Part shown: positions 13,256-63,338 of the stretch, one piece after another
Numbering within the stretch: the first letter of the stretch is position 1
Layout of the letters: each line of letters starts with the position of its first letter
From: a virus
Lineage: Duplodnaviria; Caudoviricetes
Reading direction: 5' to 3' (one strand)
Length of the DNA stretch: 64,000 nt
Virus record (IMG/VR): IMGVR_UViG_3300010397_000048
Coordinates: 730-64,729 of that record
Notes under the pieces: generated by a model
Told to the model about the DNA's origin: nothing
The model's database searches: none
What the model saw: the letters and a program-made list of their open reading frames with translations, nothing else
Made by a program: the position numbers and the translations under genes

Positions 13256-13326
13256 GCGGGTGTGGTGTAGAGGTAACATAAGTGTCTTCCAAACATTTGT
13301 CCAGGGTTCGATTCCCTGTATCCGCT
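13256..13326 (+). tRNA. tRNA-Gly(TCC)
   Basis: AGTGT-CTTCCAA-ACATT; U73. Confidence 0.92.
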
Positions 13327-13381
13327 CTTTGTAACAATGCTTTTTAATCGTACTGCTTATAGAAAGCTGGCGAATAATTGA

Positions 13382-13573: not shown

Positions 13574-13751
13574 ATGTGGATATAGTCGATCTTCTGACCA
13601 AGATGGTCGCAGCTTCACTGAAGTTTGTTCAATTTGTTACCTTGAAGATTGTTCGACAATGATCTCTCCTTTAGCACTTATTTGTGACGAGTGCAGAGAA
13701 GAATTAGAACCAGAAAGACTTATCGATCCCGGTGAATCTTTGTTAATGTAG
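13548..13751 (+). CDS. Cys-rich (Zn-binding) small protein
   Basis: CIEC, CSIC and CDEC pairs. Confidence 0.5.
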   Translation: MPSIIECIECGYSRSSDQDGRSFTEVCSICYLEDCSTMISPLALICDECREELEPERLIDPGESLLM

Positions 13752-13877
13752 TCTAGATAGCTGCGCAATTGTTTGTTTGCTGGTTTCTTTGTTCCTTGCG
13801 CGTAACTGATAGGTTGAGTGATCCCGGGAATTGTTCCTCCCATCAGCCACAAATCAAAACTAAAGGAAACCAGTCTT

Positions 13878-13948
13878 TCTCTCATAGCATAAGGGTAGTG
13901 CGCGCGACTGTTAATCGCTGGATCTAGGTTCGAATCCTGGTGAGAGAG
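13878..13948 (+). tRNA. tRNA-Asn(GTT)
   Basis: GCGA-CTGTTAA-TCGC; acceptor TCTCTCA/TGAGAGA. Confidence 0.9.
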
Positions 13949-13949
13949 C

Positions 13950-14135
13950 ATGAGAACTAGACAATGTGAATTAGGCATTACGTATGAAGAAATCGAACAT
14001 GCCTTAAAAGATCGTACACAGGAGTTTTACAATTGGATGGATGGACAAACAATGGCGCTTTGCCCAGAGCATGGCGGCGTGGTTTATCCATGGGACTTAC
14101 AAAGATTTATTTCTGGTTTACCAGTAATTGATTAA
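13950..14135 (+). CDS. hypothetical protein
   Basis: FYNWMDGQT...VYPWDLQRF small-phage-protein-like motif. Confidence 0.6.
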   Translation: MRTRQCELGITYEEIEHALKDRTQEFYNWMDGQTMALCPEHGGVVYPWDLQRFISGLPVID

Positions 14136-14136
14136 T

Positions 14137-14208
14137 GCCTCCATAGCTCAGCGGCAGAGCAGCTCACTAGTAATGAGCAGGTCGTGGGTTCAATTCCTAC
14201 TGGTGGCT
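14137..14208 (+). tRNA. tRNA-Thr(AGT)
   Basis: GCTCA-CTAGTAA-TGAGC; body nearly identical to Thr(TGT) at 15045. Confidence 0.9.
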
Positions 14209-14212
14209 CTTT

Positions 14213-14266
14213 TTAGACACACACAGCAATTCAAATCCATTCCAAGGGTGAATATATTGTGTCTAG
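14213..14266 (+). ncRNA. ACAGCAA-stem ncRNA (Y-RNA-like), copy 1
   Basis: TTAGACAC-AC-ACAGCAAT...GTGTCTAG. Confidence 0.7.
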
Positions 14267-14273
14267 GTAAAAT

Positions 14274-14355
14274 GGAAGCTTCAGCATTGGCAAGCGAAAC
14301 TGTCTTGAAAACAGCAGAGGTAACACTCTTGGGGGTTCGACTCCCTCAGCTTCCG
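14274..14355 (+). tRNA. tRNA-Ser(TGA)
   Basis: CTGT-CTTGAAA-ACAG; long variable arm. Confidence 0.88.
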
Positions 14356-14687
14356 CAATGGGAAACACGTTCCGAGTGCACTTTACAAGATGTTGGAATA
14401 ATCTCAGAGAGAATAGAAAAATTGCGAAAAGTTACTCAGGCACCCAATGGTTAGGTTTGTAGCGTGTCGATACCCAGTAACAATGGCAGTTTAATACGGA
14501 AACCTAGCCCCATTACCTTGCTGCTTCTATTCTCGAATACTTCAGATGTTCTCATGCTCAATTCCAGCTCTTAGATATAATCTGGTAATAGTGGTCGCCT
14601 AGCCGTTGCCCTGTTCGGCGAAGCAACCCTAAGTTGGGAATAGACCCTGCCAGGATCAGGGAATCTACTACTGGTAGTTCTGATTAA

Positions 14688-14758
14688 TGCCCATTGGTGT
14701 AACGGCAACACTAAGGATTCTGAATCCTTCATTCTTAGTTCGAATCTAGGATGGGCAG
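14688..14758 (+). tRNA. tRNA-Gln(CTG)
   Basis: AAGGA-TTCTGAA-TCCTT. Confidence 0.92.
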
Positions 14759-14886
14759 CTTTGGTGACAGTTACCGATATAAGTTAGCTACTTTATCATA
14801 GGAACTGTTCGGATAAGAATGAGGTCGCGATATACGTCTTATCCGCCTGTCTGGTATGTGCAGGCTAGCCAATTACATACCGACTT

Positions 14887-14962
14887 GGAGCAGTATACAA
14901 ATTGGAATAAGTGGCCAGACTTTCAATCTGGTATTGTGCGGGTTCGAGTCCCGTCTGCTCTA
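14887..14962 (+). tRNA. tRNA-Glu(TTC)
   Basis: CCAGA-CTTTCAA-TCTGG. Confidence 0.9.
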
Positions 14963-14969
14963 CGATATA

Positions 14970-15039
14970 TTAGACACTTACAGCAATACTTTATTCTTAA
15001 CCCTAATATTCTGGAAATAAGAAGCCAAAATGTGTCTAG
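14970..15039 (+). ncRNA. ACAGCAA-stem ncRNA, copy 2
   Basis: TTAGACAC-TT-ACAGCAAT...GTGTCTAG. Confidence 0.7.
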
Positions 15040-15044
15040 GAAAT

Positions 15045-15118
15045 GCCTCTATAGCTCAGTTGGTCAGAGCAATCGCCTTGTAAGCGATAGGTCGTGGGTT
15101 CGAATCCTACTAGTGGCT
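15045..15118 (+). tRNA. tRNA-Thr(TGT)
   Basis: ATCGC-CTTGTAA-GCGAT. Confidence 0.93.
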
Positions 15119-15212
15119 CAAGTGAGTAGTTGTGGGTAACGTGACGCTATGTCGGTCCTCTTTGAAATAGAAGAGACATCAAATCCGGCTACAGAATTGG
15201 AACCCTCATTAA

Positions 15213-15283
15213 TGGCTCATCGTCTAACGGCAGGACAGAAGACTTTGAATCTTAGAATCGTGGTTCGAATCCATGTGAGCCAG
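15213..15283 (+). tRNA. tRNA-Gln(TTG)
   Basis: AAGA-CTTTGAA-TCTT. Confidence 0.9.
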
Positions 15284-15363
15284 CGAGAGTTAAATGGTGA
15301 CTGAATTAGCTACTCAGGTAAACATTGACCGGGCATAGACGGTTCTCAACCTATGCACTTTTT

Positions 15364-15438
15364 ATCACAGTAGCTTAATTGGGAAAGCTCCGGTCTCCAA
15401 AACCGATGTAGATTAAGGTTCGAGTCCTTACTGTGGTG
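15364..15438 (+). tRNA. tRNA-Trp(CCA)
   Basis: CGGT-CTCCAAA-ACCG. Confidence 0.88.
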
Positions 15439-15439
15439 C

Positions 15440-15502
15440 TTAGACAGCAACAGCAATCACTTATCAAACAATATATTGCATTGTAAAAGATAAGCTGTCT
15501 AG
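15440..15502 (+). ncRNA. ACAGCAA-stem ncRNA, copy 3
   Basis: TTAGACAG-CA-ACAGCAAT...CTGTCTAG (compensatory change). Confidence 0.7.
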
Positions 15503-15507
15503 TTTAA

Positions 15508-15580
15508 CGGGTATTAGATCATGGGGTAGATAGCGCGATTTGGGATCGTGAGGCGGAAGGTTCGAGTCCTTCATACCCGA
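15508..15580 (+). tRNA. tRNA-Pro(TGG)
   Basis: CGCGA-TTTGGGA-TCGTG; C1-G72. Confidence 0.9.
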
Positions 15581-15712
15581 CGTGAAACAACATGAAGTTG
15601 GAATGGTTTGGGACCATGTCCTTTGGTATTGGGAAAAATTTACTCAGTGCTATTTAAAAGGTAACCATTTAGAGAAAATGGATTCGCATGGCAAATGCTA
15701 TAGGTGTGGGAA

Positions 15713-15877
15713 ATGCTTAGCGAAGAAATGTTACTAGAGATTCGTGAACGATACACACATTATGGTGAAACTGAAAAGCTCAATAAGAGAACAGCAGTTC
15801 ACGACATTAGACTTCTTTTAGAAGAAATCGATAGACAAGAATCAGTTATAAATAGATTGGTGCTTAATCTTGTCTAA
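15713..15877 (+). CDS. hypothetical protein
   Basis: MLSEEMLLEIRERY...DIRLLLEEIDR, 54 aa, below the track cutoff. Confidence 0.5.
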   Translation: MLSEEMLLEIRERYTHYGETEKLNKRTAVHDIRLLLEEIDRQESVINRLVLNLV

Positions 15878-16037
15878 GGTAGCCTTAGATGCTGAAATAG
15901 CTAGTAGCATCTTAAAGGGATTGACCGCTTTAGATAAGGCTCTAAACAACATCGGAAAGACTCCTGAGCAGCGTGCACTTCTTAAGCGAGATATTACAGA
16001 ATTAAAGACAGCAATAAAAGTATCCCAATCATCTTGA
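15870..16037 (+). CDS. hypothetical protein
   Basis: MSKVALDAEIASSILKGL..., 55 aa, overlaps the previous ORF. Confidence 0.45.
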   Translation: MSKVALDAEIASSILKGLTALDKALNNIGKTPEQRALLKRDITELKTAIKVSQSS

Positions 16038-16059
16038 CAAAGATAAGGAAGGTAGCGAA

Positions 16060-17523
16060 ATGGGATCATTTCTAGCCGAGTTGCAGTCACAAGGAACTAA
16101 GACTGCACGCACCGAAAACGGTGCTGTAACTCATTCAACAACTACAAATGCAGTGCTGGATTTCTTTGCTCTTGCGGGAGCGAAGCGTAACGATATCGCT
16201 GGTGCAAAGACCTTGTTCCGTAAGGCTTTCCAGGAAGATCGTCAGCTAGCAATTCGTGCGCTATTCTATTTGCGTGACATTCGCGGCGGACAAGGAGAAC
16301 GTACCTTGTTCCGTGAGCTATTTAAGGAATTAACTAGATTGGATCTCGGCGCTGCTGAGAAGGTGATCGGGTTTGTTCCTGAGTACGGTCGCTGGGACGA
16401 TGTTATTTCTCTTTATGGATTTGGTGGCCTGAATAAGACTGCCTTAAAGATGATCCGTAACCAGTTGGAATTGGACGCATTGGATCGTGCAGCAGGAAAG
16501 TCAATCTCGCTAATGGCGAAGTGGCTTCCTTCGGAGAATGCTTCGAGCGCGAATTCTCGTGTGATGGCGCGACAGATTGCAACAGACTTGGGCATTTCTA
16601 ACAAGAAGTACCGTCAGACTGTTGTTGCATTGCGTAAGCACATTGGTTTACTGGAACAGCAAATGAGTACCAATTCTTGGGACTCTGTTGATTACGGTAA
16701 GCTTCCTTCTCAGGCATCACGTAAGCACACAAAGGCATTCAAGCGTCATGACGAAACTCGCTATGAGGAATTCCTCGGAGCAGTTATCAAGGGTGATGCA
16801 AAGATGAATGCTGGAACTGTTGCGACTTACGAAGTTTTGGATGTCGTACGAAAGGGAAACGACAATGCGGCCAATGCAATCTGGAAATCTCTTCCTGATT
16901 ACACAAATGGTGGAAATGCAATTGTTGTTGCCGATACTTCGGGCTCAATGACAGCGATCATTTCGGGGAGTACCAGAGCAATGGATGTTTCGACCTCTCT
17001 TGCCTTGTACTTTGCGGAACACAATGAGGGTGCATTCAAAAATTACTTCATCTCTTTCTCAGAGAGTCCAGAATTGGTAGCAGTTCGTGGGAATACTCTG
17101 ATGGAAAAGTTGCGCAACATTAGCACTACTAATTGGGGATTCAATACCAATATCGAAAAGGTATTTGATTTGATTCTCGATGCTGCAAAGCGTGCTGGTG
17201 CTGATGCTGAAGACGTCCCTAAGGTTATCTATATCATTTCAGACATGGAATTTGATTCCGTAAGAGGTGGAAGAAATGAAACCAATTACGAAGCGGCAAA
17301 GAGAAAGTTCGATGCTGCTGGGTTCCAGCTACCTCACGTAGTGTTCTGGAATGTGGCATCGAGAAACAGTAATGTTCCAACTTCTGCGGCACAAACCAAT
17401 GTGACCTTGGTTTCTGGTTTGTCACAGAGCACTTTTCGTTATGTTCTAGAAGGAAAGACTCCGGTCCAGTCCATGCTAGACATTCTTAACGGTGAGCGCT
17501 ACTCGCAGATTGTCCTTAGCTAA
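16060..17523 (+). CDS. TROVE/Ro60-like protein with C-terminal vWA domain (DUF2828 family)
   Basis: RTENGA..LDFF, YLRDIRGGQGER, EYGRWDD, AKWLPSE; vWA MIDAS DTSGSM, ISDMEFD, VFWNV. Confidence 0.85.
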   Translation: MGSFLAELQSQGTKTARTENGAVTHSTTTNAVLDFFALAGAKRNDIAGAKTLFRKAFQEDRQLAIRALFYLRDIRGGQGERTLFRELFKELTRLDLGAAEKVIGFVPEYGRWDDVISLYGFGGLNKTALKMIRNQLELDALDRAAGKSISLMAKWLPSENASSANSRVMARQIATDLGISNKKYRQTVVALRKHIGLLEQQMSTNSWDSVDYGKLPSQASRKHTKAFKRHDETRYEEFLGAVIKGDAKMNAGTVATYEVLDVVRKGNDNAANAIWKSLPDYTNGGNAIVVADTSGSMTAIISGSTRAMDVSTSLALYFAEHNEGAFKNYFISFSESPELVAVRGNTLMEKLRNISTTNWGFNTNIEKVFDLILDAAKRAGADAEDVPKVIYIISDMEFDSVRGGRNETNYEAAKRKFDAAGFQLPHVVFWNVASRNSNVPTSAAQTNVTLVSGLSQSTFRYVLEGKTPVQSMLDILNGERYSQIVLS

Positions 17524-17620
17524 GGAGTAAAGAATGGGGCCGACAAACCGGTAAAGGCTAGCAAGTTAAGGGTTGTATCTACTAGCTGCCCCATTCCCTT
17601 ATAAGAAAGGTAACCATTCC

Positions 17621-18853
17621 TTGATTAAAAAGATCGGACTACTATTAGGCTCTCTAGTTGCAGTAGTACTGTTAGCGTTTAATGGAATTGGAGTAGCAAG
17701 TGCAACTCCTATTGCTACTAGTGTTGCTGGAACAGCAACCTGTACTACTAATTCAACTGGATACTGTACGGTCAATCATGACTTAGGAACTACTCCTAAT
17801 TCAGTAGTAGTAACCATTCAAGCTGGCGGCGGATTCGCTAATGCTTATGCGTTTACTGCAACTACCTTTAAGGTTCACGCATACACTGCTGGCGGAGGAA
17901 ATGTAGTTTCTAAGCCTGTTACATTCTCATGGGTTGCTTTTGCTGGTGCAAATTCAACAACTCCACCAACTACTCTTCCGACCACAGTTCCAACAACTCA
18001 GCCAACTACTACGCCACCAACAACAGAACCAACTACTTCACCACCAACTTCAAATCCCCCGGCCGATTGGCCTAGTGCGGATAATACTGGTCCGGTAACT
18101 GGTACTGTGTTGACTGATTACACAGGATCTCTTTCGATTACTGCTCCGAATACAGTGATTGATTCTAAGACTGTGAATGGTGATCTCGATATTCGTACAA
18201 CTGGGGTCGTGATCAAGAATTCAGTTATCAATGGCGAGGTAAGCAATTATGATAACGGAGTGACTAGTTCGTTTACTATTCAGGACTCAATCGTAAAGAA
18301 TGGAAAGCGTGATGCGTGTATGTGCGTCGGCTCTCATGATTTTACTGCCCTGAGACTTGAAGTAATTGGTGGTAACCGTGGAATGTATTGTGAAAAGAAT
18401 TGTACGATTCACGATACTTATGTGCATGGCACTGATCTAAAAGCCGCACAACACGCGTCGGCCATTCGTGTAGAGCAGAATGCAACACTTGTTCATAACA
18501 AACTTCAATGTGACTGGACTGATCTTACCGATAGTGAGATTGGATGTTCGGCAGACATGACTGGTTATCCAGACTTTGCACCGATTAAGAATAACACTAT
18601 CGATAACAATTACTTTGTTGCAAATCCTGCTGGACTTGGATTCTGTGCTTACGGTGGAGACACGCAAGGTAAGCCATTTTCAAGTGATCCAAGCAATGCA
18701 ACTAACATCGTGTTCAAGAACAACGTATTCGAGCGTGGATCCAATAACAAGTGTGGAACTTGGGGTGCAATTACTGACTTCAATCCATCACGCGCCGGAA
18801 ACGTATGGACAAATAACAAATGGGATGACGGTAGTACAGTTAACCCGGAATAA
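17621..18853 (+). CDS. secreted protein with Thr/Pro linker and right-handed beta-helix (pectin-lyase-like) domain
   Basis: Signal peptide MIKKIGLLL...ASA, TTPPTT linker, WPSADNTG motif, N/D-rich beta-helix repeats. Confidence 0.75.
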   Translation: MIKKIGLLLGSLVAVVLLAFNGIGVASATPIATSVAGTATCTTNSTGYCTVNHDLGTTPNSVVVTIQAGGGFANAYAFTATTFKVHAYTAGGGNVVSKPVTFSWVAFAGANSTTPPTTLPTTVPTTQPTTTPPTTEPTTSPPTSNPPADWPSADNTGPVTGTVLTDYTGSLSITAPNTVIDSKTVNGDLDIRTTGVVIKNSVINGEVSNYDNGVTSSFTIQDSIVKNGKRDACMCVGSHDFTALRLEVIGGNRGMYCEKNCTIHDTYVHGTDLKAAQHASAIRVEQNATLVHNKLQCDWTDLTDSEIGCSADMTGYPDFAPIKNNTIDNNYFVANPAGLGFCAYGGDTQGKPFSSDPSNATNIVFKNNVFERGSNNKCGTWGAITDFNPSRAGNVWTNNKWDDGSTVNPE

Positions 18854-18862
18854 GTAATCTTA

Positions 18863-18982
18863 TTAGGCACTCACAGCAACTTTTCTTTATGAAAATTAGC
18901 TCACTTGGTAGAGCAATTGTTTATGGTACAATAGGTAACTGGTTCAACTCCAGTATTTTCAAACACAAAGTAATGTGCCTAG
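18863..18982 (+). ncRNA. ACAGCAA-stem ncRNA, copy 4, enclosing an intact tRNA-like cloverleaf (18890-18962, anticodon ATG)
   Basis: TTAGGCAC-TC-ACAGCAAC...GTGCCTAG; inner TGAAAAT/ATTTTCA acceptor plus D, anticodon and T arms. Confidence 0.78.
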
Positions 18983-19039
18983 TTAAAAGCCACCCCGGTC
19001 CCGAGGGTAAACGTAGTGGATTAAATATATCGGGCACAT

Positions 19040-19114
19040 ACGGCTATAGCTCAGTCTGGACAGAGCACTTGGCTACGAACCAAGGTGTCGGGGGTTCAAA
19101 TCCCTCTAGTCGTA
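19040..19114 (+). tRNA. tRNA-Arg(ACG)
   Basis: CTTGG-CTACGAA-CCAAG. Confidence 0.93.
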
Positions 19115-19137
19115 CTGGGAATTACATAATTCCTCAT

Positions 19138-19210
19138 GGTGGATGAAGCGGCGGCATTAGCAATTAGATTGTGGCTCTAATTCTCGCGGGTTCGAATCCC
19201 GTCTTCCACC
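19138..19210 (+). tRNA. tRNA-His(GTG)
   Basis: TTAGA-TTGTGGC-TCTAA; G-1/C73. Confidence 0.88.
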
Positions 19211-19211
19211 C

Positions 19212-19290
19212 TTAGACCCTAACAGCAATCTTAATTACAGAAAACAGAGCAGCACTGCTGACAGTTTAACAGTTAATTAATCGGGTCTAG
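19212..19290 (+). ncRNA. ACAGCAA-stem ncRNA, copy 5
   Basis: TTAGACCC-TA-ACAGCAAT...GGGTCTAG (compensatory change). Confidence 0.7.
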
Positions 19291-19299
19291 ATAAAACAA

Positions 19300-19376
19300 G
19301 GCATGGCTGCTGGGACAGAGACGGGACTGTAAATCCTGTGCGGCACGCTACCAAGGTTCGATTCCTTGACATGCCA
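19300..19376 (+). tRNA. tRNA-Tyr(GTA)
   Basis: CGGGA-CTGTAAA-TCCTG; short atypical D arm. Confidence 0.85.
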
Positions 19377-19377
19377 C

Positions 19378-19501
19378 TTAGACACGAACAGCAATTTATA
19401 ACAATTCTCATGATAAGAGAGAGGTAGTGGGTTCGATTCCCACATCCCCCATTTCTTGGGGGGTTAGCTCAATGGTAGAGCGCTAAAAGTTATGTGTCTA
19501 G
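19378..19501 (+). ncRNA. ACAGCAA-stem ncRNA, copy 6, enclosing a circularly permuted tRNA module (YrlA-like)
   Basis: TTAGACAC-GA-ACAGCAAT...GTGTCTAG; inner order anticodon arm, T arm, loop-closed acceptor, D arm. Confidence 0.82.
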
Positions 19502-19592
19502 TTTTAATAGAAGTAGTGCTCCGGAGTATTAGAATTGTAACCTGTCTCCGATTTACGAATACGGCACAGGAGCAATAATCACTACTTCTCAT

Positions 19593-19666
<74 letters not shown>

Positions 19667-19703
19667 CTGGTGACTTATCTTGTAAGATAACGACACCTTT
19701 AAT

Positions 19704-19807
19704 AGAGACGCTTACAGCAATGCCTTAGGCAGATATTTGTTCTCAGAAAACAAATTGATTTGGTTCGATTCCAAACATGGTAAACACCATGAAACTAATG
19801 CGTCTCG
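19704..19807 (+). ncRNA. ACAGCAA-stem ncRNA, copy 7, enclosing anticodon-like and T-arm hairpins
   Basis: AGAGACGC-TT-ACAGCAAT...GCGTCTCG; ATTTGTT-CTCAGAA-AACAAAT; TTTGG-TTCGATT-CCAAA. Confidence 0.75.
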
Positions 19808-19811
19808 TCAA

Positions 19812-19884
19812 CGGCAGATAGCTCAGACGGTAGAGCACTGGATTGAAGCTCCGGGTGTCACAGGTTCGATTCCTGTTCTGTCGA
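19812..19884 (+). tRNA. tRNA-Phe(GAA)
   Basis: CTGGA-TTGAAGC-TCCGG. Confidence 0.92.
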
Positions 19885-19906
19885 CTCATTAAAGAAAGGA
19901 GTACAT

Positions 19907-54254: not shown

Positions 54255-55556
54255 TTATGTAATAGAGTTTAGAGCAGAGAACGCATCGTCATCGATTGCG
54301 TCACCATCGGCACGCATTACAGCCTTTACAGACAATAGGTCATTAACCCATGCAAATTCCATCGACCATTCGATACGAACATCCTTCACCATGCGCACGT
54401 AGTACGCTGAGAAGTCACCAAATAGCGCAGTAACACCAGCATTGGACGCAGCAACTGGAATATTCGGATCAGTCAATAGCGGATAACCCAAGAAAGTATC
54501 AGGAGCACCAGCAGTCTGTAGATTCGGTTCCCAAGCGTAAACAGAACCCATCTTCAACTTACGTAGCGAGAATGAAGAAGAATCGTTTACAAGCCACTTA
54601 CCATTACGACGGTATCCAGGCTTTACCTTTCCGATTACATCGAAGAACTTATCGAAATCAGTAGTATCCCACAAACCACCTGCGGCAGTAGACACCTTGT
54701 TTCCAGCCTGAACAACAGTACGTACACCACGAGGTTCACCGGTTCCAGTTCCAAGAGTTAAGTCATAACCAATGAAGTTAGAAAGGTTACGTCCAAGAAC
54801 TTGTCCCAATAGCGCTTCGATATCGAGAACACCATCCTCGACCAATTCACGAGAAACCTGCGTGTATTGTGCATACTTATAAGCGTCCAACTGAACCTGA
54901 TCAAAACGAGGTTCACCTTCAAGAATAGGTCCGGCTTCTGCGACCTTTGCATTGGCCTGAGTGAATGCGGAACCACCAGGAGTAAGAACTAATGAAGTCA
55001 ATCGAGGTAGCTTCATAGTTTCACCTGAATTGGTACGCAAAACAGTAGGTCCAGCCTGTAGAACAGCAGAATCATCAAATAGCTTCTGGTATAGGGTTTC
55101 TACCAAAGTAGTTGGAACGGTTGCCCCACCTACGTTTGCAGTTCCTACAACCAAATCACGATGTTCTGGCAATTCCTGATAAGCCCCACCATTACGAGTT
55201 TCTCCACGACGCGATGCCGCTAGATCTTCACGCATTTTCTGTGCTAGTCCGCCGCGCTGTTCTTCACCTTTACGATCACCACGCTGACGAGCTTCATTTA
55301 CCTTTTGTACACCTGACTCGTAAGCAGCAGCAAGATCGCTGTCATTCTGAATACGATCGATTTCATCCTTAATCAATTTACCATAATGGTCAATTGATCG
55401 AGACGCCTTTTCGAATGCTTGATTGTCTTCAGCAGACAATTCCTCACCATCAGCAGCACGCTCTAGGTATTCCTTGCGAGCGTGAGCAGCAGCAATACGC
55501 TGTTCATTAAGGCGCTTTAGCAGCGGAGTTTCCGCTGGAAGATTCTCATTTGCCAT
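54255..55556 (-). CDS. HK97-family major capsid protein
   Basis: Coiled-coil delta domain, GG.TVP, VSRELVED, GTGTGEPRG, FGDFS.Y. Confidence 0.95.
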   Translation of the reverse strand: MANENLPAETPLLKRLNEQRIAAAHARKEYLERAADGEELSAEDNQAFEKASRSIDHYGKLIKDEIDRIQNDSDLAAAYESGVQKVNEARQRGDRKGEEQRGGLAQKMREDLAASRRGETRNGGAYQELPEHRDLVVGTANVGGATVPTTLVETLYQKLFDDSAVLQAGPTVLRTNSGETMKLPRLTSLVLTPGGSAFTQANAKVAEAGPILEGEPRFDQVQLDAYKYAQYTQVSRELVEDGVLDIEALLGQVLGRNLSNFIGYDLTLGTGTGEPRGVRTVVQAGNKVSTAAGGLWDTTDFDKFFDVIGKVKPGYRRNGKWLVNDSSSFSLRKLKMGSVYAWEPNLQTAGAPDTFLGYPLLTDPNIPVAASNAGVTALFGDFSAYYVRMVKDVRIEWSMEFAWVNDLLSVKAVMRADGDAIDDDAFSALNSIT

Positions 55557-55622: not shown

Positions 55623-56375
55623 TTAGAAATTAAACTCTTCCGCCAATTGACGCAACTCATCTTGCGCAAGTAGCTTACGAGCAATTTCTTTATTTAGCTT
55701 GCTATTCTGCTGAGTGGTATTATCTGATTCCGGCTGAGAATTAGCTCTATCCTCAGTGGACTCGCCCGGCTCAAGTAGTCGTGCAATAGCTTGCTTGATT
55801 GCTTCATCAGTATCTAATGTAGAGTCGATGTCACAACCATTAATGCCACATCGCTTCGCTAAACTCGTAAGAGCATTACGACGCGCTACCCCAGAAGTGG
55901 CATCGGGGTAAGCAGGAAATGTTACTGGTGCTACGTCAATTAGACCAACTTCAATTAGACTTCTTTGCGGATAGCCTTCTTCTGTTAAATCCCAATCGTC
56001 TTGCACCTTAAAAAATGTGAATGAAGATTCACGAACATCTCTACGTTCCAAAAGCTCAGCTAAATCCTTAGCATAACTGGTATTCGGGAGTAAAGATCGA
56101 TAATATAATCCACTGTTATCAATGGACAGTTCTAAAGTACCGGCACCTGTTCGACCGATAACATATTGAGGATCATGATTCCATAGTGCACGAACATCAG
56201 CCTCGCGAATTGTTTTATTAAAAGCAGTCGGCTTAACTTTTTCAACAAAGCCACCAAGATTACCGCTACGCTTTTCGAATACAGAAGCATATCCTTCGGC
56301 ATAAATGCTCGATCCTTTTGCTCTAACTTCGACTTCACCCGTAGTCATGCGGCGCTCAAGCAGTCTTTGAGTCAT
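55623..56375 (-). CDS. HK97-family prohead protease
   Basis: GYASVF, ALWNHD, SSFTF, DVAPVTFPAYPD; start MTQRLL after GGAGG. Confidence 0.93.
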   Translation of the reverse strand: MTQRLLERRMTTGEVEVRAKGSSIYAEGYASVFEKRSGNLGGFVEKVKPTAFNKTIREADVRALWNHDPQYVIGRTGAGTLELSIDNSGLYYRSLLPNTSYAKDLAELLERRDVRESSFTFFKVQDDWDLTEEGYPQRSLIEVGLIDVAPVTFPAYPDATSGVARRNALTSLAKRCGINGCDIDSTLDTDEAIKQAIARLLEPGESTEDRANSQPESDNTTQQNSKLNKEIARKLLAQDELRQLAEEFNF

Positions 56376-56501
56376 CCTGCTTTCCTCCCTCCGAAGTAGA
56401 CACCGCTTTAGTATTACGGGCATCTGCCTTGGCTTCCTTAAAGGCTTTCCGTAAATCGTCAAGATTCAATCGATTGACAGGAAGCAAATAAACCTTACTC
56501 A

Positions 56502-57167
56502 TTAGAATGCTACCGCCTTAGCTAATGCAAACCACAGTTTGCGACTTCGAATTGCTTCGGAAATCTCTACCGATCCTTCAGCAACACTTTGCAAAGTCTC
56601 CGCTGATTGTTGCACAGCCTCTTCGGTATCGTCATCGACCACAATGGACACGAATTGTGCACCCTGGTCTAGGTATGGCTGCATTTGTTCCAGCCATCTC
56701 GCCAAATCAGCGAATCTTACATTTTCACCTTCTAGAATTGCAGCAGTTTCTGGATTTAATTGGATACCACTACTAAGATTAATTTCAAGTCCTTCAGTGT
56801 CTCCGATCACTTCCATTGCAATATCACCTAAATGTAATTGCTTAAAGAATCGGCTCTCAGGATCTCCTACCCCAGATTCAACAGAATCACTCACCACATC
56901 GCAATCACAATGCGGATGAACAGGAACATTATTAGGATCTTCATTCAATCGGCATCGTTCACAGATCTTAAGTTTTTTGATAATTCGTCGTTCTACTTTA
57001 GACGTACGAGACGCTCGGGATTCTGAATCATTTTCCGCAGCAGCAATTTTAGAAGGAAGTAATTTAATTTGTGCCTCAACTTCTTCCTTCAGAAGAGTCT
57101 TACCGGAATTATCAAAAAGGCCCTGTGGCTCATCTAATAAATTAGTCATTAGCTTGCTCCACTTCAA
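56502..57167 (-). CDS. protein with MuF-like CxxC...P.HPxCxC motif
   Basis: CERC...VPVHPHCDC; located between portal and protease. Confidence 0.55.
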   Translation of the reverse strand: MKWSKLMTNLLDEPQGLFDNSGKTLLKEEVEAQIKLLPSKIAAAENDSESRASRTSKVERRIIKKLKICERCRLNEDPNNVPVHPHCDCDVVSDSVESGVGDPESRFFKQLHLGDIAMEVIGDTEGLEINLSSGIQLNPETAAILEGENVRFADLARWLEQMQPYLDQGAQFVSIVVDDDTEEAVQQSAETLQSVAEGSVEISEAIRSRKLWFALAKAVAF

Positions 57168-57996
57168 TATTAACAGATTTACCTTTTCTTGTGACTCTTC
57201 TTACTCTGACTTTGCCTTGGAATAAGTGCTCGTCATCCATAATTCCAGAACCGACAATATCGCTAATATCTGCTGATTTCTTTGAACCAACCATTCGCAA
57301 AACTACAGCATGATCTCCGACAATTCCTAATGATTCGTTTGGCCGAGCATAGGCATAGACTTCAGCAGTTTCTCGTTTCTTTGCCCAACTAGAAATAGGC
57401 GTCTCGAAAGTATCCCCTGGTTTTGGTAAATCTTTACGATTCAAAAGAATCCCACGATATAATGGACTTCTATGAGTTGATGCAGTATCCATTCGATGTT
57501 GAAGAACAGCAGCAGCATTTCGGATATCTGCTTTTAAATTCTTTTCCTTATACGGTCCAGGTTGTCTGGTTCCATCCGGTAAGTCTTTAGCTCCCGCTTG
57601 TAATAAAGTATACTGATGTCCACCTAATGGCACATCTTCGAGAGTAGGCTTTCCTGTTTTATTATTAGCAACTGCTTTTGTAACTTGTTTATGTCCAGCA
57701 TATGATTCAGACCATAATCCACCAGCACGCTTTTCCATATTACTAGAACTCTGCCAGGGTGCGCCAAAAGGATAAACGTCATTCTGATTCATAATCATCA
57801 TGTCAGGGTCATCTTTTCCTACTTTCTCAGTAGGAGCACCAGAAGAAGAATGCTTTGCAAATTTACCAGCTTTATCGTGATAGGGATTAGCGCGAATATC
57901 ATAAACAGCTTTATCTTTAGAAGTCATTCGACCATTAGCGTCCCGATAAGGGTTGCCTCTCTTTTTCTTAGGGGCACTCTCCACAATGGCCTGCAA
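57142..57996 (-). CDS. putative ADP-ribosyltransferase (R-S-E clan) with N-terminal NPY[RH]DxxG repeats
   Basis: LYRG ... ISSW ... DEHL; GNPYRDANGRM and ANPYHDKAGKF. Confidence 0.55.
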   Translation of the reverse strand: MQAIVESAPKKKRGNPYRDANGRMTSKDKAVYDIRANPYHDKAGKFAKHSSSGAPTEKVGKDDPDMMIMNQNDVYPFGAPWQSSSNMEKRAGGLWSESYAGHKQVTKAVANNKTGKPTLEDVPLGGHQYTLLQAGAKDLPDGTRQPGPYKEKNLKADIRNAAAVLQHRMDTASTHRSPLYRGILLNRKDLPKPGDTFETPISSWAKKRETAEVYAYARPNESLGIVGDHAVVLRMVGSKKSADISDIVGSGIMDDEHLFQGKVRVRRVTRKGKSVNIEVEQAND

Positions 57997-58007: not shown

Positions 58008-58235
58008 CTAGAAAGGGTTATCAGGTTCACGCTTTCTAAGCTCAGTTAACAATGTTTCAGTATCCATAGTAGATGGATCTGCTGATCTTGATTGTGGTTC
58101 CTCGTCATCGATTTCAGGACTTAATTCAGGAATTCCTTCATCTTCAACATCAAACTGAACAGTATCAAACCATTCTTTTAATAATGCTGCTTCTTCTTCA
58201 GCAGTAAAGGTATGAGCTTCATAAACATCAGTCAT
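58008..58235 (-). CDS. acidic hypothetical protein
   Basis: TAATG coupling to the portal gene. Confidence 0.6.
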   Translation of the reverse strand: MTDVYEAHTFTAEEEAALLKEWFDTVQFDVEDEGIPELSPEIDDEEPQSRSADPSTMDTETLLTELRKREPDNPF

Positions 58236-60571
58236 TACTCAATCCAGCTCCCATCCTTTACCCATGGTGTAAACACTGTCGGATTAATATAAGAACTTAA
58301 TGCCATTGATGCATCATTTCCTAATTCAGTAGCAACTCGACGCCCGATTTCCTTACGTGCCTTCAAAAAATCAGGCTTAGACTGAGGAGGTTCGATATTT
58401 TTAACCTCGCGCAATGCAACCACATTAGCGTGATTAGTACGTAGATCTTTTAGTAGAAATTCTTTAGGAATTCCACCTTCACTATTCATATACCGACGTA
58501 CTTTATCTTCATTAGTATTAAAAAGCTGTTCTTCCGAATCCTTACCGATATGACGAGATCGAAGAACATCGACCACCTTAGAGTCATGTGTCTTTAGTAC
58601 AATGTGGACTCCATCTTTACCAGTGAAATCAAGGGTTGCAGAGCCATCGTCATTGAAATGTACGTGCTTTGCTTTTAGGTTCGTAGCGCCGTGTGCTTGT
58701 ACCTTTGCACCACGATTAGCATTAGACCCTGGTCGCATTCCCATCCGACGAATTAGAGTAAGTGCTCCCGCTTCATCGCTAGTTAATGCATCTCGCTCTA
58801 GTGCTGAATCCAATTTATCTAAATGGGGTTGCAATTCTTTGTTTCGCTGGAATTTCTTTTCGGCCTGACGTGCTGTGTGTTCCTTTGAATACCATGCTTG
58901 TCTACGACCTTTTGAATCTCGGCCTAAAACCTGAAGATCAGCAGTTTCTAAATTATCAGCAATTTGAACATCAGTCCAAGCAGGAGGAATTGACTTACCA
59001 GTAACTTCTTTGAATCGAGCCTTACTTTCATCAGTTGCTGGTGACATTCCTTCTTTAGAAGCAAATTGTCCACTAGCTTTACTGTGAATTTTATTAAAGC
59101 GCGATTCCGAAGTAGCAGCTTCGAATTCTTCATCTAAAATATCTAAAATAGAGCGTCCTGCTGCGGCATCCTGTTTACGTAATTTATCTTCTTGCTTTGT
59201 ACGTCCACCTTCACCCGGTGAATTAGCACCGCTCTTTGGCGGAGACGGTGTACTATTCGCAGGATTAGGAGAATTCTGAGCCATCGCGTCACCCTGCACT
59301 TTAGCCAATTCCTGCTGCTGTGCCGATGCAATTTCGGAAAAGAACTTATCTCCGTCAGTAACTTTAGGAAGTCCTAATTTCATACGTGTTTCATTTTTAG
59401 TAGAAACATCTTTTTCAAATAGACCAACCCAAGTATCAGACAATTCCTTAAAGGTACCCATAAGCAATGCTGAGGTATCGAGTTCAATAAATGTACCCAA
59501 ACCTTCATTACCAGGAGCATAAGCACTTAAGGCATCCTGTAAGCGCGTGATCCACGGTCCGAAAGTTCCCTGTAGCATTGCTGTATTTTGCTCTGCTAAT
59601 CCAGAACCCCATGAGGTAGAAGCGCTTACAATTCCCACTCGGTGCGGCGGAACTCGGAACCATCTAGCGATGTCAATTGCCTGATGTTCACGCGACTGAA
59701 GGAACTGTGCATCATCCGGCGGAATAGTGATTTGATGAATCTTTGCTCCACCCGATGCAATTGCTGGACGATGCCAATTGTTCTTTCCTCTGTGGAATCG
59801 CTCGAATGTACGAACAATGTCCTTTGCCTTTGTTTCATCGACATTGTTAGGAATTTCCAAAACAATCTTAGCTTGTGACCCTTGACCGAAATAGCGGGCA
59901 CCATATTCTTCTAAGGTAAGTCCTAATCCAATAGCTTCACGCGCATATTGAATTACTGACATTCCGGCAGGCATTCCTGGTAAAGTAGGTCCTTGCACAT
60001 GGAAAATATCAAAAGACGTGTACCATGGTCCGTTACCACCAACACGATACCTACGGAATCCGGCCTTATTCGGGTCCCATTCCACAGTAACCGATGCAGG
60101 ATCTAAAACATCCAATCCCACAATTACACCATCACTTGGACGACGACGGAAAGCAGCATACCCGTTTCCCCAAGTCAATGCAGAAACTAGTAATTGATTA
60201 AAAATATCAAATCTTCTAATTTCCGGGTGAGGCGCACGAATCCACTGTGGAACTTCCTGTTCCTGGCGATTACCGTCAGCACCTAGTGTATAAGCGTGTG
60301 GTGGCAAAGAAGCAACACCATCAGCAATAAGTGTAATTGCAGCAAACACAACACCCATTTTAAAGGCCGAGTCCTCACTTACATACACACCACTATTGGT
60401 TTTAGTTCCTTCATCTTCATTTCCATAGACATTCCATGGGAGCACAGCGCGTAATTCTTCAGGCATTGAGTTCCATGCGTCTCTAGTTAATCCAGTTTCT
60501 GGATCATATTCGATAACCCTAGATTCAGTGGCAGACCGCTTGTTAATGCGGAATAAGTCAAAAAATGCCAC
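58235..60571 (-). CDS. HK97-family portal protein fused to type IB DNA topoisomerase
   Basis: Portal motifs (GNGY, DAQFLQSR, IARWFRVPPH, TKNETR); C-terminal IPPAWTDV, GRDSKGRRQ, MRPG, FTGKDG, KDLRT, LGN, SYINP. Confidence 0.9.
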   Translation of the reverse strand: MAFFDLFRINKRSATESRVIEYDPETGLTRDAWNSMPEELRAVLPWNVYGNEDEGTKTNSGVYVSEDSAFKMGVVFAAITLIADGVASLPPHAYTLGADGNRQEQEVPQWIRAPHPEIRRFDIFNQLLVSALTWGNGYAAFRRRPSDGVIVGLDVLDPASVTVEWDPNKAGFRRYRVGGNGPWYTSFDIFHVQGPTLPGMPAGMSVIQYAREAIGLGLTLEEYGARYFGQGSQAKIVLEIPNNVDETKAKDIVRTFERFHRGKNNWHRPAIASGGAKIHQITIPPDDAQFLQSREHQAIDIARWFRVPPHRVGIVSASTSWGSGLAEQNTAMLQGTFGPWITRLQDALSAYAPGNEGLGTFIELDTSALLMGTFKELSDTWVGLFEKDVSTKNETRMKLGLPKVTDGDKFFSEIASAQQQELAKVQGDAMAQNSPNPANSTPSPPKSGANSPGEGGRTKQEDKLRKQDAAAGRSILDILDEEFEAATSESRFNKIHSKASGQFASKEGMSPATDESKARFKEVTGKSIPPAWTDVQIADNLETADLQVLGRDSKGRRQAWYSKEHTARQAEKKFQRNKELQPHLDKLDSALERDALTSDEAGALTLIRRMGMRPGSNANRGAKVQAHGATNLKAKHVHFNDDGSATLDFTGKDGVHIVLKTHDSKVVDVLRSRHIGKDSEEQLFNTNEDKVRRYMNSEGGIPKEFLLKDLRTNHANVVALREVKNIEPPQSKPDFLKARKEIGRRVATELGNDASMALSSYINPTVFTPWVKDGSWIE

Positions 60572-60582: not shown

Positions 60583-62292
60583 CTAATCCCAATCATCATC
60601 AAAAGCATTATAGTTATCACCGAACAATTCATTGTCGGAGAATACAAACAAGTTTGCTTCTTTTTGAATATCAAGTCCAACTAATACTGTAAGTGCAGTA
60701 ACCAATGCCATCAACCCATCAATAGGTGCCTTGGATTTTAGCTTGTCAGGCTTAATTTTACCTTCTGAATCTTGCTTATAATTGGCATTCGATGCCATCC
60801 ATCGCATCATTCCGTTTTGATTCGTGGTTAACTGACGAACACCCATTAGACGAGTTAATTCCTGTGAACCAGGATTTAAGCGTGTAGTGGTCTGTGGAAC
60901 GGAAATACAAAGCACATCAGTTTTACCTTCAACCTGATTAATAATCGAAGGAGCCTGATGTTGGTCATAACCAATTGTAGTAATGTTATATCTTTCAATA
61001 TCTTCCAAGATATGTTTTGTGATCATGTCATAGTCATGACTATCACTTTCTACAATAGTCAACCAACCTTGTGCTTCCCAGTCTAAGAATCTCTCACGCA
61101 TTCTTCTATGTCTATTTCCTAAAGTCTTACGTGGCACCCAAAAATGAGGCTTTACCATCGTTTTTTCGGGAGTTTGCCACACAAGTACCCAAGCAGTTAA
61201 GTCCTGAGTGGACGCTAGGTCAAGTCCGCCAATAGCGGGGATACCCTTCAATTGCTCAGGGTCAAATAATCCAGCAGCTTCTTCACTCTGATCCCAAATA
61301 GTCATATCGAGCCATCTATTTGCATCATTACCCCATTGATTAAGTCGGAAAATGCGGAAATTGTTCAATGCCGCATAATCTCCCTTTTCTCTAGCAGTCT
61401 TCAACTCGTCGCGTAACTGCTGGATATCGAAGAATGTACCTAAAGCTGGATTTGCTTCATACCAAAGATTTTCATCTTCATAGTCTGCTTCTTCGTCCAC
61501 ATAGGCCACAAAAGAAAATCGCTTAGGATCAATGGTCGGATTAGTTGTAGCCGCTCGAATACTATGCTGGTGCTCAGTATATGCGAACGATTCACGATCA
61601 GGTCCAGCGGTAGTAATACCAATAATCAATTGATTAGGTCGGGTACCAAAACCTTGTGCAAGTGAGTCCCACAAATCACGATTCGGCTGAGCCAAAACCT
61701 CATCAATAAGAACTGCATAAGGATTTGCTCCCAGGTTGCTCATTGCATCCGCAGAAACTACCTGATAGGTAGACATCGTTGGTCTGTAAAGGATTCGCTT
61801 TCGTGAATCGATAATTTCCAGATCACCCTTTTCTTTCAATTTAGAAAGAGCAGGAGAAAGATTAATCATGTCTCGCGCAACATTGAAAACTGCCGATGCC
61901 TGGTTCTTATCTGAAGCTGCACCAATGATCTCAGCCGACCATTCACCGTCATAAATAAGCAAATACAAGGCCAGAGCTGCAATTAGTTCTGATTTTCCTT
62001 GTTTTCTTGCCATTTCAATCCACGCTGTGTTGTATTGTCGCACCCACTTCTTCCAGAACTGAGAATAGGTAATGGTTCCAAAAAGCGGAGCTATAATGCC
62101 CTCTAATTCCCATCTACCTTCGTCGTTCTTTTTGGCGCTACCTTTTTGCCAGTCTTCAAGAACAAATGGTTTTCTTGCCCACGTCGATTTAGTGTGTACA
62201 GTCATCCGTTCAATGAAATTAATGGCCTTTTTTGCTCTCTTAGCCGAAAACTCCGCACCTTCTGGAAGGGTAGAAGTATGAACAATCGGCAT
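60583..62292 (-). CDS. terL: terminase large subunit
   Basis: LEDWQ, ARKQGKS, LIDEV, ITTAG, GLDLAST.DLTA, IDG. Confidence 0.95.
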   Translation of the reverse strand: MPIVHTSTLPEGAEFSAKRAKKAINFIERMTVHTKSTWARKPFVLEDWQKGSAKKNDEGRWELEGIIAPLFGTITYSQFWKKWVRQYNTAWIEMARKQGKSELIAALALYLLIYDGEWSAEIIGAASDKNQASAVFNVARDMINLSPALSKLKEKGDLEIIDSRKRILYRPTMSTYQVVSADAMSNLGANPYAVLIDEVLAQPNRDLWDSLAQGFGTRPNQLIIGITTAGPDRESFAYTEHQHSIRAATTNPTIDPKRFSFVAYVDEEADYEDENLWYEANPALGTFFDIQQLRDELKTAREKGDYAALNNFRIFRLNQWGNDANRWLDMTIWDQSEEAAGLFDPEQLKGIPAIGGLDLASTQDLTAWVLVWQTPEKTMVKPHFWVPRKTLGNRHRRMRERFLDWEAQGWLTIVESDSHDYDMITKHILEDIERYNITTIGYDQHQAPSIINQVEGKTDVLCISVPQTTTRLNPGSQELTRLMGVRQLTTNQNGMMRWMASNANYKQDSEGKIKPDKLKSKAPIDGLMALVTALTVLVGLDIQKEANLFVFSDNELFGDNYNAFDDDWD

Positions 62293-62407: not shown

Positions 62408-62557
62408 TTAGCTTTCGTCAGCTTTTCCTGGGTCAATTGGCTTGGTATCCAAGCGATTACCCGTATTTTTAACCTGAGCAGTTACAGAAGCCGGGCGACC
62501 CTTATTCGGATTTCCTACAGCCTTAACATGAACAGGCTGACGTGATTTATTAGTCAA
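62408..62557 (-). CDS. small hypothetical protein
   Basis: MTNKSRQPVHVKAVGNPN..., 49 aa, overlaps the peptidase stop. Confidence 0.4.
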   Translation of the reverse strand: MTNKSRQPVHVKAVGNPNKGRPASVTAQVKNTGNRLDTKPIDPGKADES

Positions 62558-63338
62558 GGCAACCCCACTTTCCAGTTAGGAATAAGTTATAAAGTTTCTC
62601 AAGGAACGAACATTTCTTATTGATTGGTGGTACTGGAATCGGTTCAGGAGTAGGAGGTACTAATGGAATTCGAACTGGCTTACACACATCGCCATTCGCA
62701 GCAATCAGTTTTGCCATATCGGTCCGATAAATCTTAGCCTCTCCGTTGTCACCCCACGACTGTCCCCACGAATTACGAATAGTATAAAAACCACTCTCGT
62801 AGTTAATTCCAATCACTACTACACAGTGTCCACCAACAACTTGCCCAGTAGGATGTAAATAGCCATTAGAATCCGGATCCATCATTCCTTCATACCAGTC
62901 GATACCAATAATCACCGGACCATAATTAGAAATCGTACGTGCCATATCCAATTCATTATCTGCCCACAGATAATTACTGTAGTAACCTCTATTTTTAGCT
63001 ACTTTAGCTCCTGCTAATACAGAAGTTCCTTCGTAATCTTCTCCTGGCCATTCATCGATCCTTTTAGCATCATTGTAGACACTCATTGCAAAGTTATAAT
63101 TGATATTAGGAACTGGCTCTGGTTCAGCGGCCAATTCGCCAGAAGTACCGAATCCGACACACGCACCGTCTGATCCCTGATCTAAAATAGCGTAATCTTG
63201 CCACTTTTTAGTAAAGATCTCGGGTGCTTGAATCATTGTGCATTGTGCAAGTTCCTTAGTCCACATTAGAGATACAGGATAATTTCTATTCCGTAAGTCA
63301 TCAGAAGGTACTCGATCAAATTTGCGAGTTACAGTCAT
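62550..63338 (-). CDS. papain-like (C1) cysteine peptidase
   Basis: DQGSDGACVGF (Q, C), GGHCVVVIG (H), RNSWGQSWGDNG (N). Confidence 0.9.
   Translation of the reverse strand: MTVTRKFDRVPSDDLRNRNYPVSLMWTKELAQCTMIQAPEIFTKKWQDYAILDQGSDGACVGFGTSGELAAEPEPVPNINYNFAMSVYNDAKRIDEWPGEDYEGTSVLAGAKVAKNRGYYSNYLWADNELDMARTISNYGPVIIGIDWYEGMMDPDSNGYLHPTGQVVGGHCVVVIGINYESGFYTIRNSWGQSWGDNGEAKIYRTDMAKLIAANGDVCKPVRIPLVPPTPEPIPVPPINKKCSFLEKLYNLFLTGKWGCLD

Follow-up and report, generated by a model that had tools for sequence, protein, structure and literature searches.

The window analysed here, 64,000 nucleotides long, comprises nearly all of a 64,729-base record of an uncultured soil virus in IMG/VR (IMGVR_UViG_3300010397_000048; estimated completeness 84%) and carries on its minus strand a gene in which a phage portal protein is joined in frame to a type IB topoisomerase (TopIB). 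This gene, which we call portal-TopIB, occupies positions 58235-60571 (778 codons plus a stop) and begins with a GTG codon located 11 nucleotides past the stop codon of the large terminase gene. The frame is uninterrupted over 779 codons in a search of the whole record, and the plus strand across the same interval contains many stops. The first-pass annotation of this DNA had reported a single 778-residue open reading frame (ORF) combining an HK97-type portal with a TopIB, and Pfam matches to both halves of the GTG-initiated frame, with an NCBIfam match to the portal half, bear this out. The annotation was silent on the strand, on the large family to which the gene belongs beyond this one example, and on the apparently polymorphic cargo genes that lie beside it.

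The N-terminal half is an HK97-type portal. Pfam Phage_portal (PF04860) matches residues 74-400 (59372-60352, minus strand; E 6e-66; 223 bits, the cut-off being 39.1), with portal-like sequence continuing to about residue 428, and the NCBIfam model TIGR01537 (portal_HK97) scores 176 bits against a cut-off of 112. Among the PHROGs, portal families match the portal part and a single phrog of unknown function covers the TopIB part. Solved portals that match by sequence alignment are those of phiXa (9lbn, E 1e-35) and HK97 (8cez, E 2e-30), and a Foldseek search with an AlphaFold (AF2) model of portal-TopIB, built on 40 relatives, returns 8cez first (E 1.4e-17; template modelling (TM) score 0.59 by target). 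The portal monomer is modelled patchily, with predicted local distance difference test (pLDDT) values below 50 at residues 207-239 and 259-333. The likeness to the HK97-family portals (HK97 gp3, 8cez and 8fql; phiXa, 9lbn) extends over profile matches, sequence and fold, as well as the gene order of terminase, portal, protease and capsid, but ordinary HK97 portals end at about 400-430 residues and the phage portal-TopIB is some 350 residues longer. PF04860 and the topoisomerase family PF01028 each have one match in the whole record, in both cases within this ORF, and since the record's one portal match lies here the fused protein must act as the portal of the phage.

The TopIB module spans residues 508-778 (58238-59050, minus strand) and consists of an N-terminal beta domain and a catalytic domain. 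Pfam Topoisom_I (PF01028) matches residues 568-755 (E 1.3e-15, 57.8 bits against a cut-off of 23.7; 61.2 bits in the whole-record search), and Top1B_N_bact aligns with residues 527-552 at 22.9 bits, under its cut-off of 27. The portal and Topoisom_I profile searches, which the first-pass annotation had named as a check on its assignment, thus both score well over the curated cut-offs. Compared with solved structures, the last 290 residues match the enzymes of Deinococcus radiodurans (2f4q, E 6e-10) and variola virus (2h7f, E 6e-8). The module is modelled with pLDDT values of about 80-93, and Foldseek aligns it with 2h7f over 282 columns (E 6e-12, TM 0.59 by target) and with 3m4a (E 6e-11); the 282 columns take in the full variola enzyme and hence its two-domain architecture, and the vaccinia N-domain on its own (1vcc) gives a match at E 0.016. 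The start of the module had been placed at about 59047, which corresponds to residue 509, where the AlphaFold model turns confident.

Five catalytic positions had been recognised from short motifs, and each falls where it should in residue-for-residue alignments to solved enzymes, four of them on the R/K/R/Y of 2h7f. Arg613 (MRPG; 58733-58735) aligns with the first catalytic Arg of the pox and Deinococcus enzymes, and Lys652 (GKDG; 58616-58618), Arg711 (DLRT; 58439-58441) and the active-site Tyr761 (SYINP; 58289-58291), all on the minus strand, are placed by the structure alignment and by the relatives. Asn752 (LGN; 58316-58318, minus strand) lies on the His of the pox enzyme and on the Asn of Deinococcus 2f4q. 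All five residues are invariant in 40 of 40 family members, whose identity to the window is 61-84%. A similar picture comes from two sets of more remote relatives with other carriers: R/K/R/Y are invariant and the Asn at least 90% conserved in a set of 59, and all five are invariant in a set of 44. By these comparisons the TopIB is complete and apparently active, and is under purifying selection as an enzyme.

This conservation bears on an explanation in which the module has a non-catalytic role, acting as a DNA clamp, an end-holder or a plug, for example as an anchor for a genome end at the portal. TopIB enzymes, including those of the matched structures 2h7f and 3m4a, do encircle duplex DNA as a clamp, and the DNA termini of T4 are described as colocalising above the portal (PMC10893049). 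Retention of the five catalytic residues in every close relative, and their near invariance in the 103 distant ones, argues for catalysis, and we regard a purely structural role as improbable.

Two known groups of enzymes are closest to the module. The poxvirus TopIB (vaccinia H6R and variola; 2h7f, 3igc) shares the module's two-domain fold and catalytic positions, but is a free core protein of about 314 residues from a eukaryotic virus, is not fused to a structural protein, has His where the phage protein has Asn, and is only remotely similar in sequence (E 6e-8). Of the solved structures, the TopIB of D. radiodurans (2f4q, 3m4a) is the one most similar in sequence, and its fourth catalytic position is likewise Asn, but it is a stand-alone chromosomal enzyme, and a long branch of the tree sets cellular-type sequences apart from the phage type. 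We also looked for target-site bias in the pentamer CCCTT, the poxvirus TopIB site; its 99 occurrences against 118 +/- 8.8 expected are mildly low and uninformative.

Between the two halves is a disordered, low-complexity linker of variable length (residues 429-507; 59051-59287, minus strand). Measured from F410 to M509 it is 60-99 residues long among 40 relatives, and across 39 relatives its mean identity to the window (43%) is lower than that of the portal part (73%) or the TopIB part (75%). The earlier description of the linker as rich in proline and serine is roughly right, A, S, E, Q, K, G and P being its abundant residues. The AF2 model gives pLDDT values below 50 at residues 429-457 and 469-507, with one short helix at 459-472. 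This corresponds to a conserved basic segment recognised in the alignment of relatives (residues 457-473; 59153-59203, minus strand), in which R457, D462, R465, K466, Q467 and A470 are invariant; the helix is present in 46 of 47 close-family proteins and in none of 250 other proteins tested. An internal start at the invariant Met509 that would yield free TopIB was considered and rejected: a purine-rich stretch before it abuts the ATG with no spacer, and the residue falls on a position in the hydrophobic core of the pox enzyme.

It might be supposed that a stop codon or frameshift in the linker was missed, or that two genes were joined by chimeric assembly. The suspicion rests solely on the metagenomic origin of the record and the low complexity of the linker, and it is effectively refuted by the same architecture elsewhere. 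In six of seven related IMG/VR loci, which derive from other assemblies and are 73-100% identical in the portal part, the frame is uninterrupted and contains all five motifs (664-775 residues to the stop); the seventh leaves its contig with the frame still open. Both parts are matched in 45 further protein clusters besides that of the window, from four data sources (JGI, ENA, Logan and NCBI), with lengths of 636-781 residues and TopIB parts 55-88% identical. The stretch is present whole or in part in 23 run rows, which belong to 22 studies of soil or rhizosphere and of which four are possible sources, and Logan contigs from two non-source runs, X5 (spanning 58526-60571) and X10 (58750-60518), bridge the whole linker with no indels. 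Thirteen single-base differences are found among the runs, of which twelve are synonymous and one gives R18K. All eight variants in the TopIB part are silent (four of these come from one 82-nucleotide contig at depth 3), and a natural variant at 58289, within the Tyr761 codon, is synonymous. The portal-TopIB fusion is thus real and selected, and is no assembly artefact.

Two further observations from the runs were set aside. A metatranscriptome run (X23) yields a single 198-nucleotide contig at 59839-60036, which is no evidence of transcription since such libraries can contain DNA. Depth gaps in run X6 over most of the portal-TopIB gene are meaningless for contig data.

Comparison of TopIB domains shows that the window is one example among many. 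A search with the TopIB part among proteins of 427-1362 residues gave 132 matches, and by precomputed Pfam labels the 120 matches listed include 49 HK97-type portals (PF04860), four Portal_Mu, four Phage_portal_3 and 11 MuF proteins, together with six ADP-ribosyltransferases, four 2H and three DUF5872 proteins. The same architecture, for which a survey had been suggested, therefore recurs in a large family. When ten of the matches were rescanned with Pfam a second family (E 1e-3) was found in nine and a carrier or partner domain was confirmed in seven, with architectures that include Phage_portal_3 with TopIB, Portal_Mu with TopIB, MuF (with an intein) with TopIB, and Phage_portal with Acb1 and TopIB. 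A metagenomic protein of 919 residues (P0121) has an HK97-type portal, the nuclease Acb1, which acts against the cyclic-oligonucleotide-based anti-phage signalling system (CBASS), and TopIB in one chain.

An exhaustive phmmer search of 1.84 billion cluster representatives gave 3,341 matches at E<=1e-3; the stricter threshold of E<=1e-30 leaves 733 clusters, defined at 50% identity. Among the best 150 representatives the TopIB lies within 30 residues of the C-terminus in 128 and is preceded by at least 150 residues in 96; in 47 there are fewer than 150 residues on both sides, some of these being surely fragments. The 103 extended representatives match, at Pfam E<=1e-5, MuF (11), a portal family (seven), ADP-ribosyltransferase (six), 2H (three), DUF5872 (three), PI3/PI4-kinase-like (two) and GNAT acetyltransferase (two) domains, with one each of Acb1, InPase, NUDIX, Zeta toxin, PolyA_pol, RtcB, HD_4 and AAA_33. 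In a FastTree phylogeny of 196 TopIB domains (two short fragments and a duplicate of the window protein were left out), 175 phage-type rows are split by a long branch from 20 cellular-type rows that include a Kitasatospora protein. The window falls in a group (support 98) of 46 portal fusions and three short proteins, possibly fragments. Carrier labels change at least five times for HK97-type portals, four for Mu-type portals, three for MuF and two for Phage_portal_3; the tree being quick and unrooted, these are minimum gains or losses and no history. Since several label changes are needed, the TopIB appears to have been joined to carriers repeatedly, and by these comparisons the portal fusion exemplifies what this TopIB clade does in general.

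Portals have their C-terminal end in the crown, on the side of the capsid interior. In T4, green fluorescent protein (GFP) attached to the portal (gp20) at its C-terminus is reported in one passage of a review to sit in the prohead interior (PMC10893049), and in P22 a barrel of portal C-terminal domains is described as putatively extending inwards (PMC4992974). Because the module is attached to the portal C-terminus, the TopIB very probably lies inside the head, and the structural part of the earlier interpretation (that the fusion is real, the TopIB complete, and its location very probably in the head) is upheld.

The genes around portal-TopIB all lie on the minus strand, in the order small terminase, papain-like peptidase, large terminase, portal-TopIB, ORFs of 75, 284 and 221 residues, Peptidase_S78 and capsid. 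The large terminase gene (60583-62292; Pfam TerL_ATPase and TerL_nuclease) is directly upstream of portal-TopIB. The Peptidase_S78 prohead serine protease is encoded at 55623-56462 (Pfam E 7e-45), and the HK97-fold major capsid protein at 54255-55556, where Pfam Phage_capsid matches residues 143-429 behind an N-terminal extension of about 142 residues. The papain-family cysteine peptidase (Peptidase_C1, phrog_16701; 62550-63338) is unusual in its position between the small and large terminase genes.

The 75-residue ORF (58008-58235, minus strand) starts with a one-base overlap of the portal-TopIB stop. Its product is very acidic, its position is conserved in sister phages, and no family matches it in the Pfam and PHROG scans. 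In two of six sister loci its sequence forms the N-terminus of a larger protein of about 460-475 residues. It could be an adaptor, a chaperone or an inhibitor, and its occurrence in fused form in the two sister loci argues against a simple immunity role.

The 284-residue ORF (57142-57996, minus strand) has a disordered leader of about 58 residues followed by a domain with a predicted ADP-ribosyltransferase fold. Its AF2 model (pLDDT 77, predicted TM score 0.71) is disordered over the first 58 residues and folded over the remainder, and Foldseek aligns it with the Vis toxin (4y1w and 4xzj; E about 2e-7, TM 0.53-0.56 by target) and then with C3-like ADP-ribosyltransferases. A protein language model gives the same lead. 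Pfam finds nothing in this ORF even at E 10, the PHROGs find nothing, and BLASTP comparisons with two ADP-ribosyltransferase-bearing proteins (P0066 and P0106) are non-significant, so the assignment is unsupported at the level of sequence and is backed by the fold and the language-model lead.

The leader of this ORF is more widely distributed than the domain behind it. Among 30 homologues, 15 share the first 40-70 residues alone (46-85% identical) and then continue into unrelated sequence; three of the 15 carry a Pfam ADP-ribosyltransferase label, and in P0318, P0321 and P0326 the leader is followed by a segment of the 221-residue ORF of the window. Because one leader precedes unrelated C-terminal domains in sister phages, the 284-residue ORF looks like a polymorphic cargo gene. 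Its leader contains two copies of a motif, NPx[RH]Dxx-G-[KR]-[FLM], at 57888-57917 and 57954-57983 (minus strand). In 82 of 237 proteins a looser form of the motif is found 10-60 residues before the TopIB, whereas shuffled controls show it in 1 of 237; beyond the close portal family 39 of 190 proteins have it, and in the window portal-TopIB it lies at residue 496. The form NPx[RH]Dxx-G-[KR]-[FW] recurs across cargo leaders. The motif may be a release or docking signal. The idea that it is a site for the maturation protease was not supported, since its absence from the capsid protein and the protease means that it is not obviously such a site.

The 221-residue ORF (56502-57167, minus strand) contains a CxxC...HPxCxC segment that looks like the conserved core of the MuF minor head proteins, and Pfam shows no MuF match in it; the MuF-like assignment is a lead only. 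Six sister loci with sequence downstream of portal-TopIB have one common layout, with a small ORF of 75-84 residues in four, one to three ORFs bearing the motif or leader in five, and a MuF-like ORF in five, after which a protease-sized ORF follows. Two of the sister phages differ in the cargo region (locus L005, 6519-9114, and locus L003, 5053-6909): one has three successive motif-bearing ORFs after portal-TopIB, and the other a single 618-residue frame with three motif copies and a MuF-like core. The difference suggests that the cargo region is being reshuffled.

The reading that we favour, giving it about an even chance, is that the TopIB is a head cargo, freed from its carrier and leaving the particle together with the DNA. 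As the portal assembles into a dodecamer, up to 12 TopIB modules, each of about 31 kDa on a flexible tether, would come to lie in the prohead, and loading would need no separate targeting signal. During or after maturation a cut in the linker would separate the TopIB from the portal; the simplest candidate for making it is the Peptidase_S78 prohead protease, whose gene is the fourth downstream. The freed enzyme would exit with the DNA at infection. In the cell it would relax supercoils in an ATP-independent manner before any phage gene is expressed. Its target might be the incoming genome, with early transcription or circularisation being aided as proposed for the poxvirus virion enzyme, or it might be the host chromosome. 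We infer each of the interior location, cleavage, ejection and target.

The comparative data lean towards release and injection, because the same TopIB is found on MuF proteins, on three portal families, and in chains with enzymes whose action is confined to the host cytoplasm. The substrates of Acb1, NUDIX, 2H and ADP-ribosyltransferase domains occur solely in the host cytoplasm, and a portal-borne chain that contains one of them would therefore have to be released and delivered. The cargo-like genes alongside portal-TopIB, with an ADP-ribosyltransferase fold behind a shared leader, were likewise counted in favour of an ejected cargo.

Several observations weigh against release and ejection. 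No cleavage site was identified in portal-TopIB, and since the portal stays in the particle the enzyme could not reach the cell without cleavage. The short motif is absent from the capsid protein, the prohead protease, and the 221- and 75-residue ORFs. Most N-terminal extensions in the wider clade (roughly 60%) match no Pfam family, and a virion-carrier label holds for a minority. Another passage of the T4 review places the C-terminal GFP of the portal 'exterior to the wing domain' (PMC10893049). Presence of portal-TopIB in virions, its cutting and its ejection are all steps that we infer, and the named structural carriers, portals and MuF, are all located at the portal vertex, which is equally compatible with a job performed there.

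Such a job could be that of a tethered swivel, in which the TopIB stays on the portal crown and releases twist above the channel during packaging or ejection. All the recognisable structural carriers, the three portal families and MuF, belong to the portal vertex, MuF (Gp7) being reported to bind the portal in SPP1 (PMC5576092). A linker of 60-99 residues could reach DNA emerging from the channel, the conserved basic helix of the close family could contact that DNA, and the failure to find a cleavage site is in keeping with a swivel. Torsional models of packaging exist, and head filling by T4 is described as impaired without topoisomerase II (PMC10893049). However, the same TopIB is also chained to Acb1, ADP-ribosyltransferase, 2H, NUDIX, InPase and Zeta-toxin domains, which would lack substrates in the capsid, and forms with little or no extension exist (the 47 noted above among the best 150 representatives). 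Most tailed phages package DNA without such an enzyme, and a nicking enzyme beside tightly packed DNA risks forming covalent protein-DNA adducts. We consider the swivel the main alternative, possible but less likely than release and ejection.

The genes of the other arm are relevant to a further explanation, that the TopIB works in the producer cell. The fusion would then serve to make TopIB late and to time it with head assembly, the enzyme, on portals still unassembled or already bound in proheads, would relax or resolve replicating or concatemeric DNA where packaging takes place, and its copy in the virion would be incidental. Portal-TopIB would be expressed with the packaging genes, its start being so close behind the large terminase stop. 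The phage encodes a DNA polymerase A of its own, together with an AAA_25 helicase-type protein, a class II ribonucleotide reductase and ThyX, with no other topoisomerase among the genes scanned for families. In some jumbo phages a topoisomerase I of the TopIB type is described alongside genes for replication and recombination (PMC7824862). Against this, a TopIB fused at the C-terminal end of a portal points into the prohead rather than towards the concatemer or the terminase, and repeated independent fusion to virion carriers is poorly explained by co-expression alone. We think such a role unlikely, though somewhat less so than a non-catalytic one.

The head-cargo proposal can be extended, speculatively, to a modular system in soil phages, in which portal, MuF and leader are interchangeable vehicles and the short motif (of the NPx[RH]Dxx-G-[KR]-[FW] type) is the release junction. 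The TopIB would be loaded on the genome at the portal, leave with the DNA, relax it and, through ATP-free cutting and rejoining of strands, hold or join its ends, giving ligase-independent circularisation or protection from host nucleases. This elaboration in full is doubtful. If true, it would be the first case of a phage particle delivering a topoisomerase, and a new way round the 'naked linear DNA' problem with which infection begins.

The head-cargo proposal has parallels in known systems. Packaging and injection have been predicted for effector domains on MuF and portal proteins (Iyer et al. 2017, PMC5512222; Jamet et al. 2017, PMC5576092), and portal-TopIB resembles these 'polyvalent' effectors in having the virion module in front and the enzyme behind in one chain, with the same enzyme occurring on more than one carrier. 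The partner domains in this clade (ADP-ribosyltransferase, 2H, InPase, NUDIX and Zeta toxin) belong to the repertoire described in the two papers. MuF toxins are reported in one of them solely from temperate phages (PMC5576092). TopIB is not named as an effector in the main text of either paper, although the supplementary domain lists might hold it; the word 'topoisomerase' is present once in PMC5512222, in a reference title, and nowhere in the main text of PMC5576092.

Alt and the internal proteins of T4 offer a second parallel, as head-packaged enzymes described as injected with the DNA (PMC5512222). Alt is paralleled by the 284-residue ORF, with its predicted ADP-ribosyltransferase fold, beside portal-TopIB. 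T4 cargo consists of free proteins whose short N-terminal targeting sequence is removed by the prohead protease, whereas the carrier here is the portal itself. The capsid targeting sequence of T4 head cargo is described in the T4 review (PMC10893049). As with the proposed phage cargo, the poxvirus enzyme is a virion component: the vaccinia H6R topoisomerase appears in a list of known virion enzymes (PMC1540416).

A phage-specific TopIB-type topoisomerase I is described in the jumbo phages phiRSL1, Lu11 and PaBG (PMC7824862), but the description places it among replication and recombination genes and not in a structural fusion. These enzymes are not detected by the window TopIB domain in 50,697 phage records (tblastn, E<=1e-3), the sole match being a weak one to a stand-alone gene of a Bacteroides phage. 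None of these deposited records contains the portal-TopIB fusion, and the portal part finds bare portals at no more than 35% identity. In the literature searched we found no description of a portal or MuF protein fused to TopIB, and no paper combining 'portal protein', 'topoisomerase IB' and 'phage', in keeping with the earlier remark that the fusion was uncharacterised. What is new is the TopIB as a proposed cargo; the TopIB of poxviruses, bacteria and jumbo phages is known, as is the principle of effector fusion to MuF and portal proteins.

Tailed phages are thought to deliver near-bare DNA, sometimes accompanied by RNA polymerases, ADP-ribosyltransferases or anti-restriction proteins. With a topoisomerase as part of its portal, the virion would also bring a means of controlling DNA topology, paralleling the poxvirus core enzyme. 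Since the family of 733 clusters (E<=1e-30) lies wholly in uncultured phages, a class of putative virion enzymes has been overlooked. The fusion is also a natural construct with which the build-up of twist in packaging and ejection, and the exit of portal-borne domains, become testable, and it is a possible tool, in which a 12-mer ring would assemble by itself and present an enzyme able to relax and join DNA without ATP.

A scan of 185,579 species genomes with the family alignment, using two search patterns that were both taken from the portal part, gave 42 loci that match the portal part alone at 28-37% identity, mostly in Streptomyces, with other actinobacteria and a few metagenome-assembled genomes. 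In none of the 42 is there a TopIB within 6 kb, and all of these portals end before the TopIB. The large terminase points elsewhere, to phages of gut Firmicutes (39%). The closest relatives of the portal and the DNA polymerase are in high-G+C actinobacterial phages and prophages, at about 33% identity.

Among other features of the record, 29 tRNA genes covering all 20 amino acids are present at 183-19885 on the plus strand; the phage is about 65-77 kb with 41-46% G+C. In view of this G+C content and the high-G+C actinobacterial phages and prophages in which its relatives are found, the full tRNA set may offset a mismatch in codon usage with the host. Within the tRNA-rich early arm we also note a 487-residue ORF (16060-17523, plus strand) with DUF7788, DUF2828 and VWA_2 domains.

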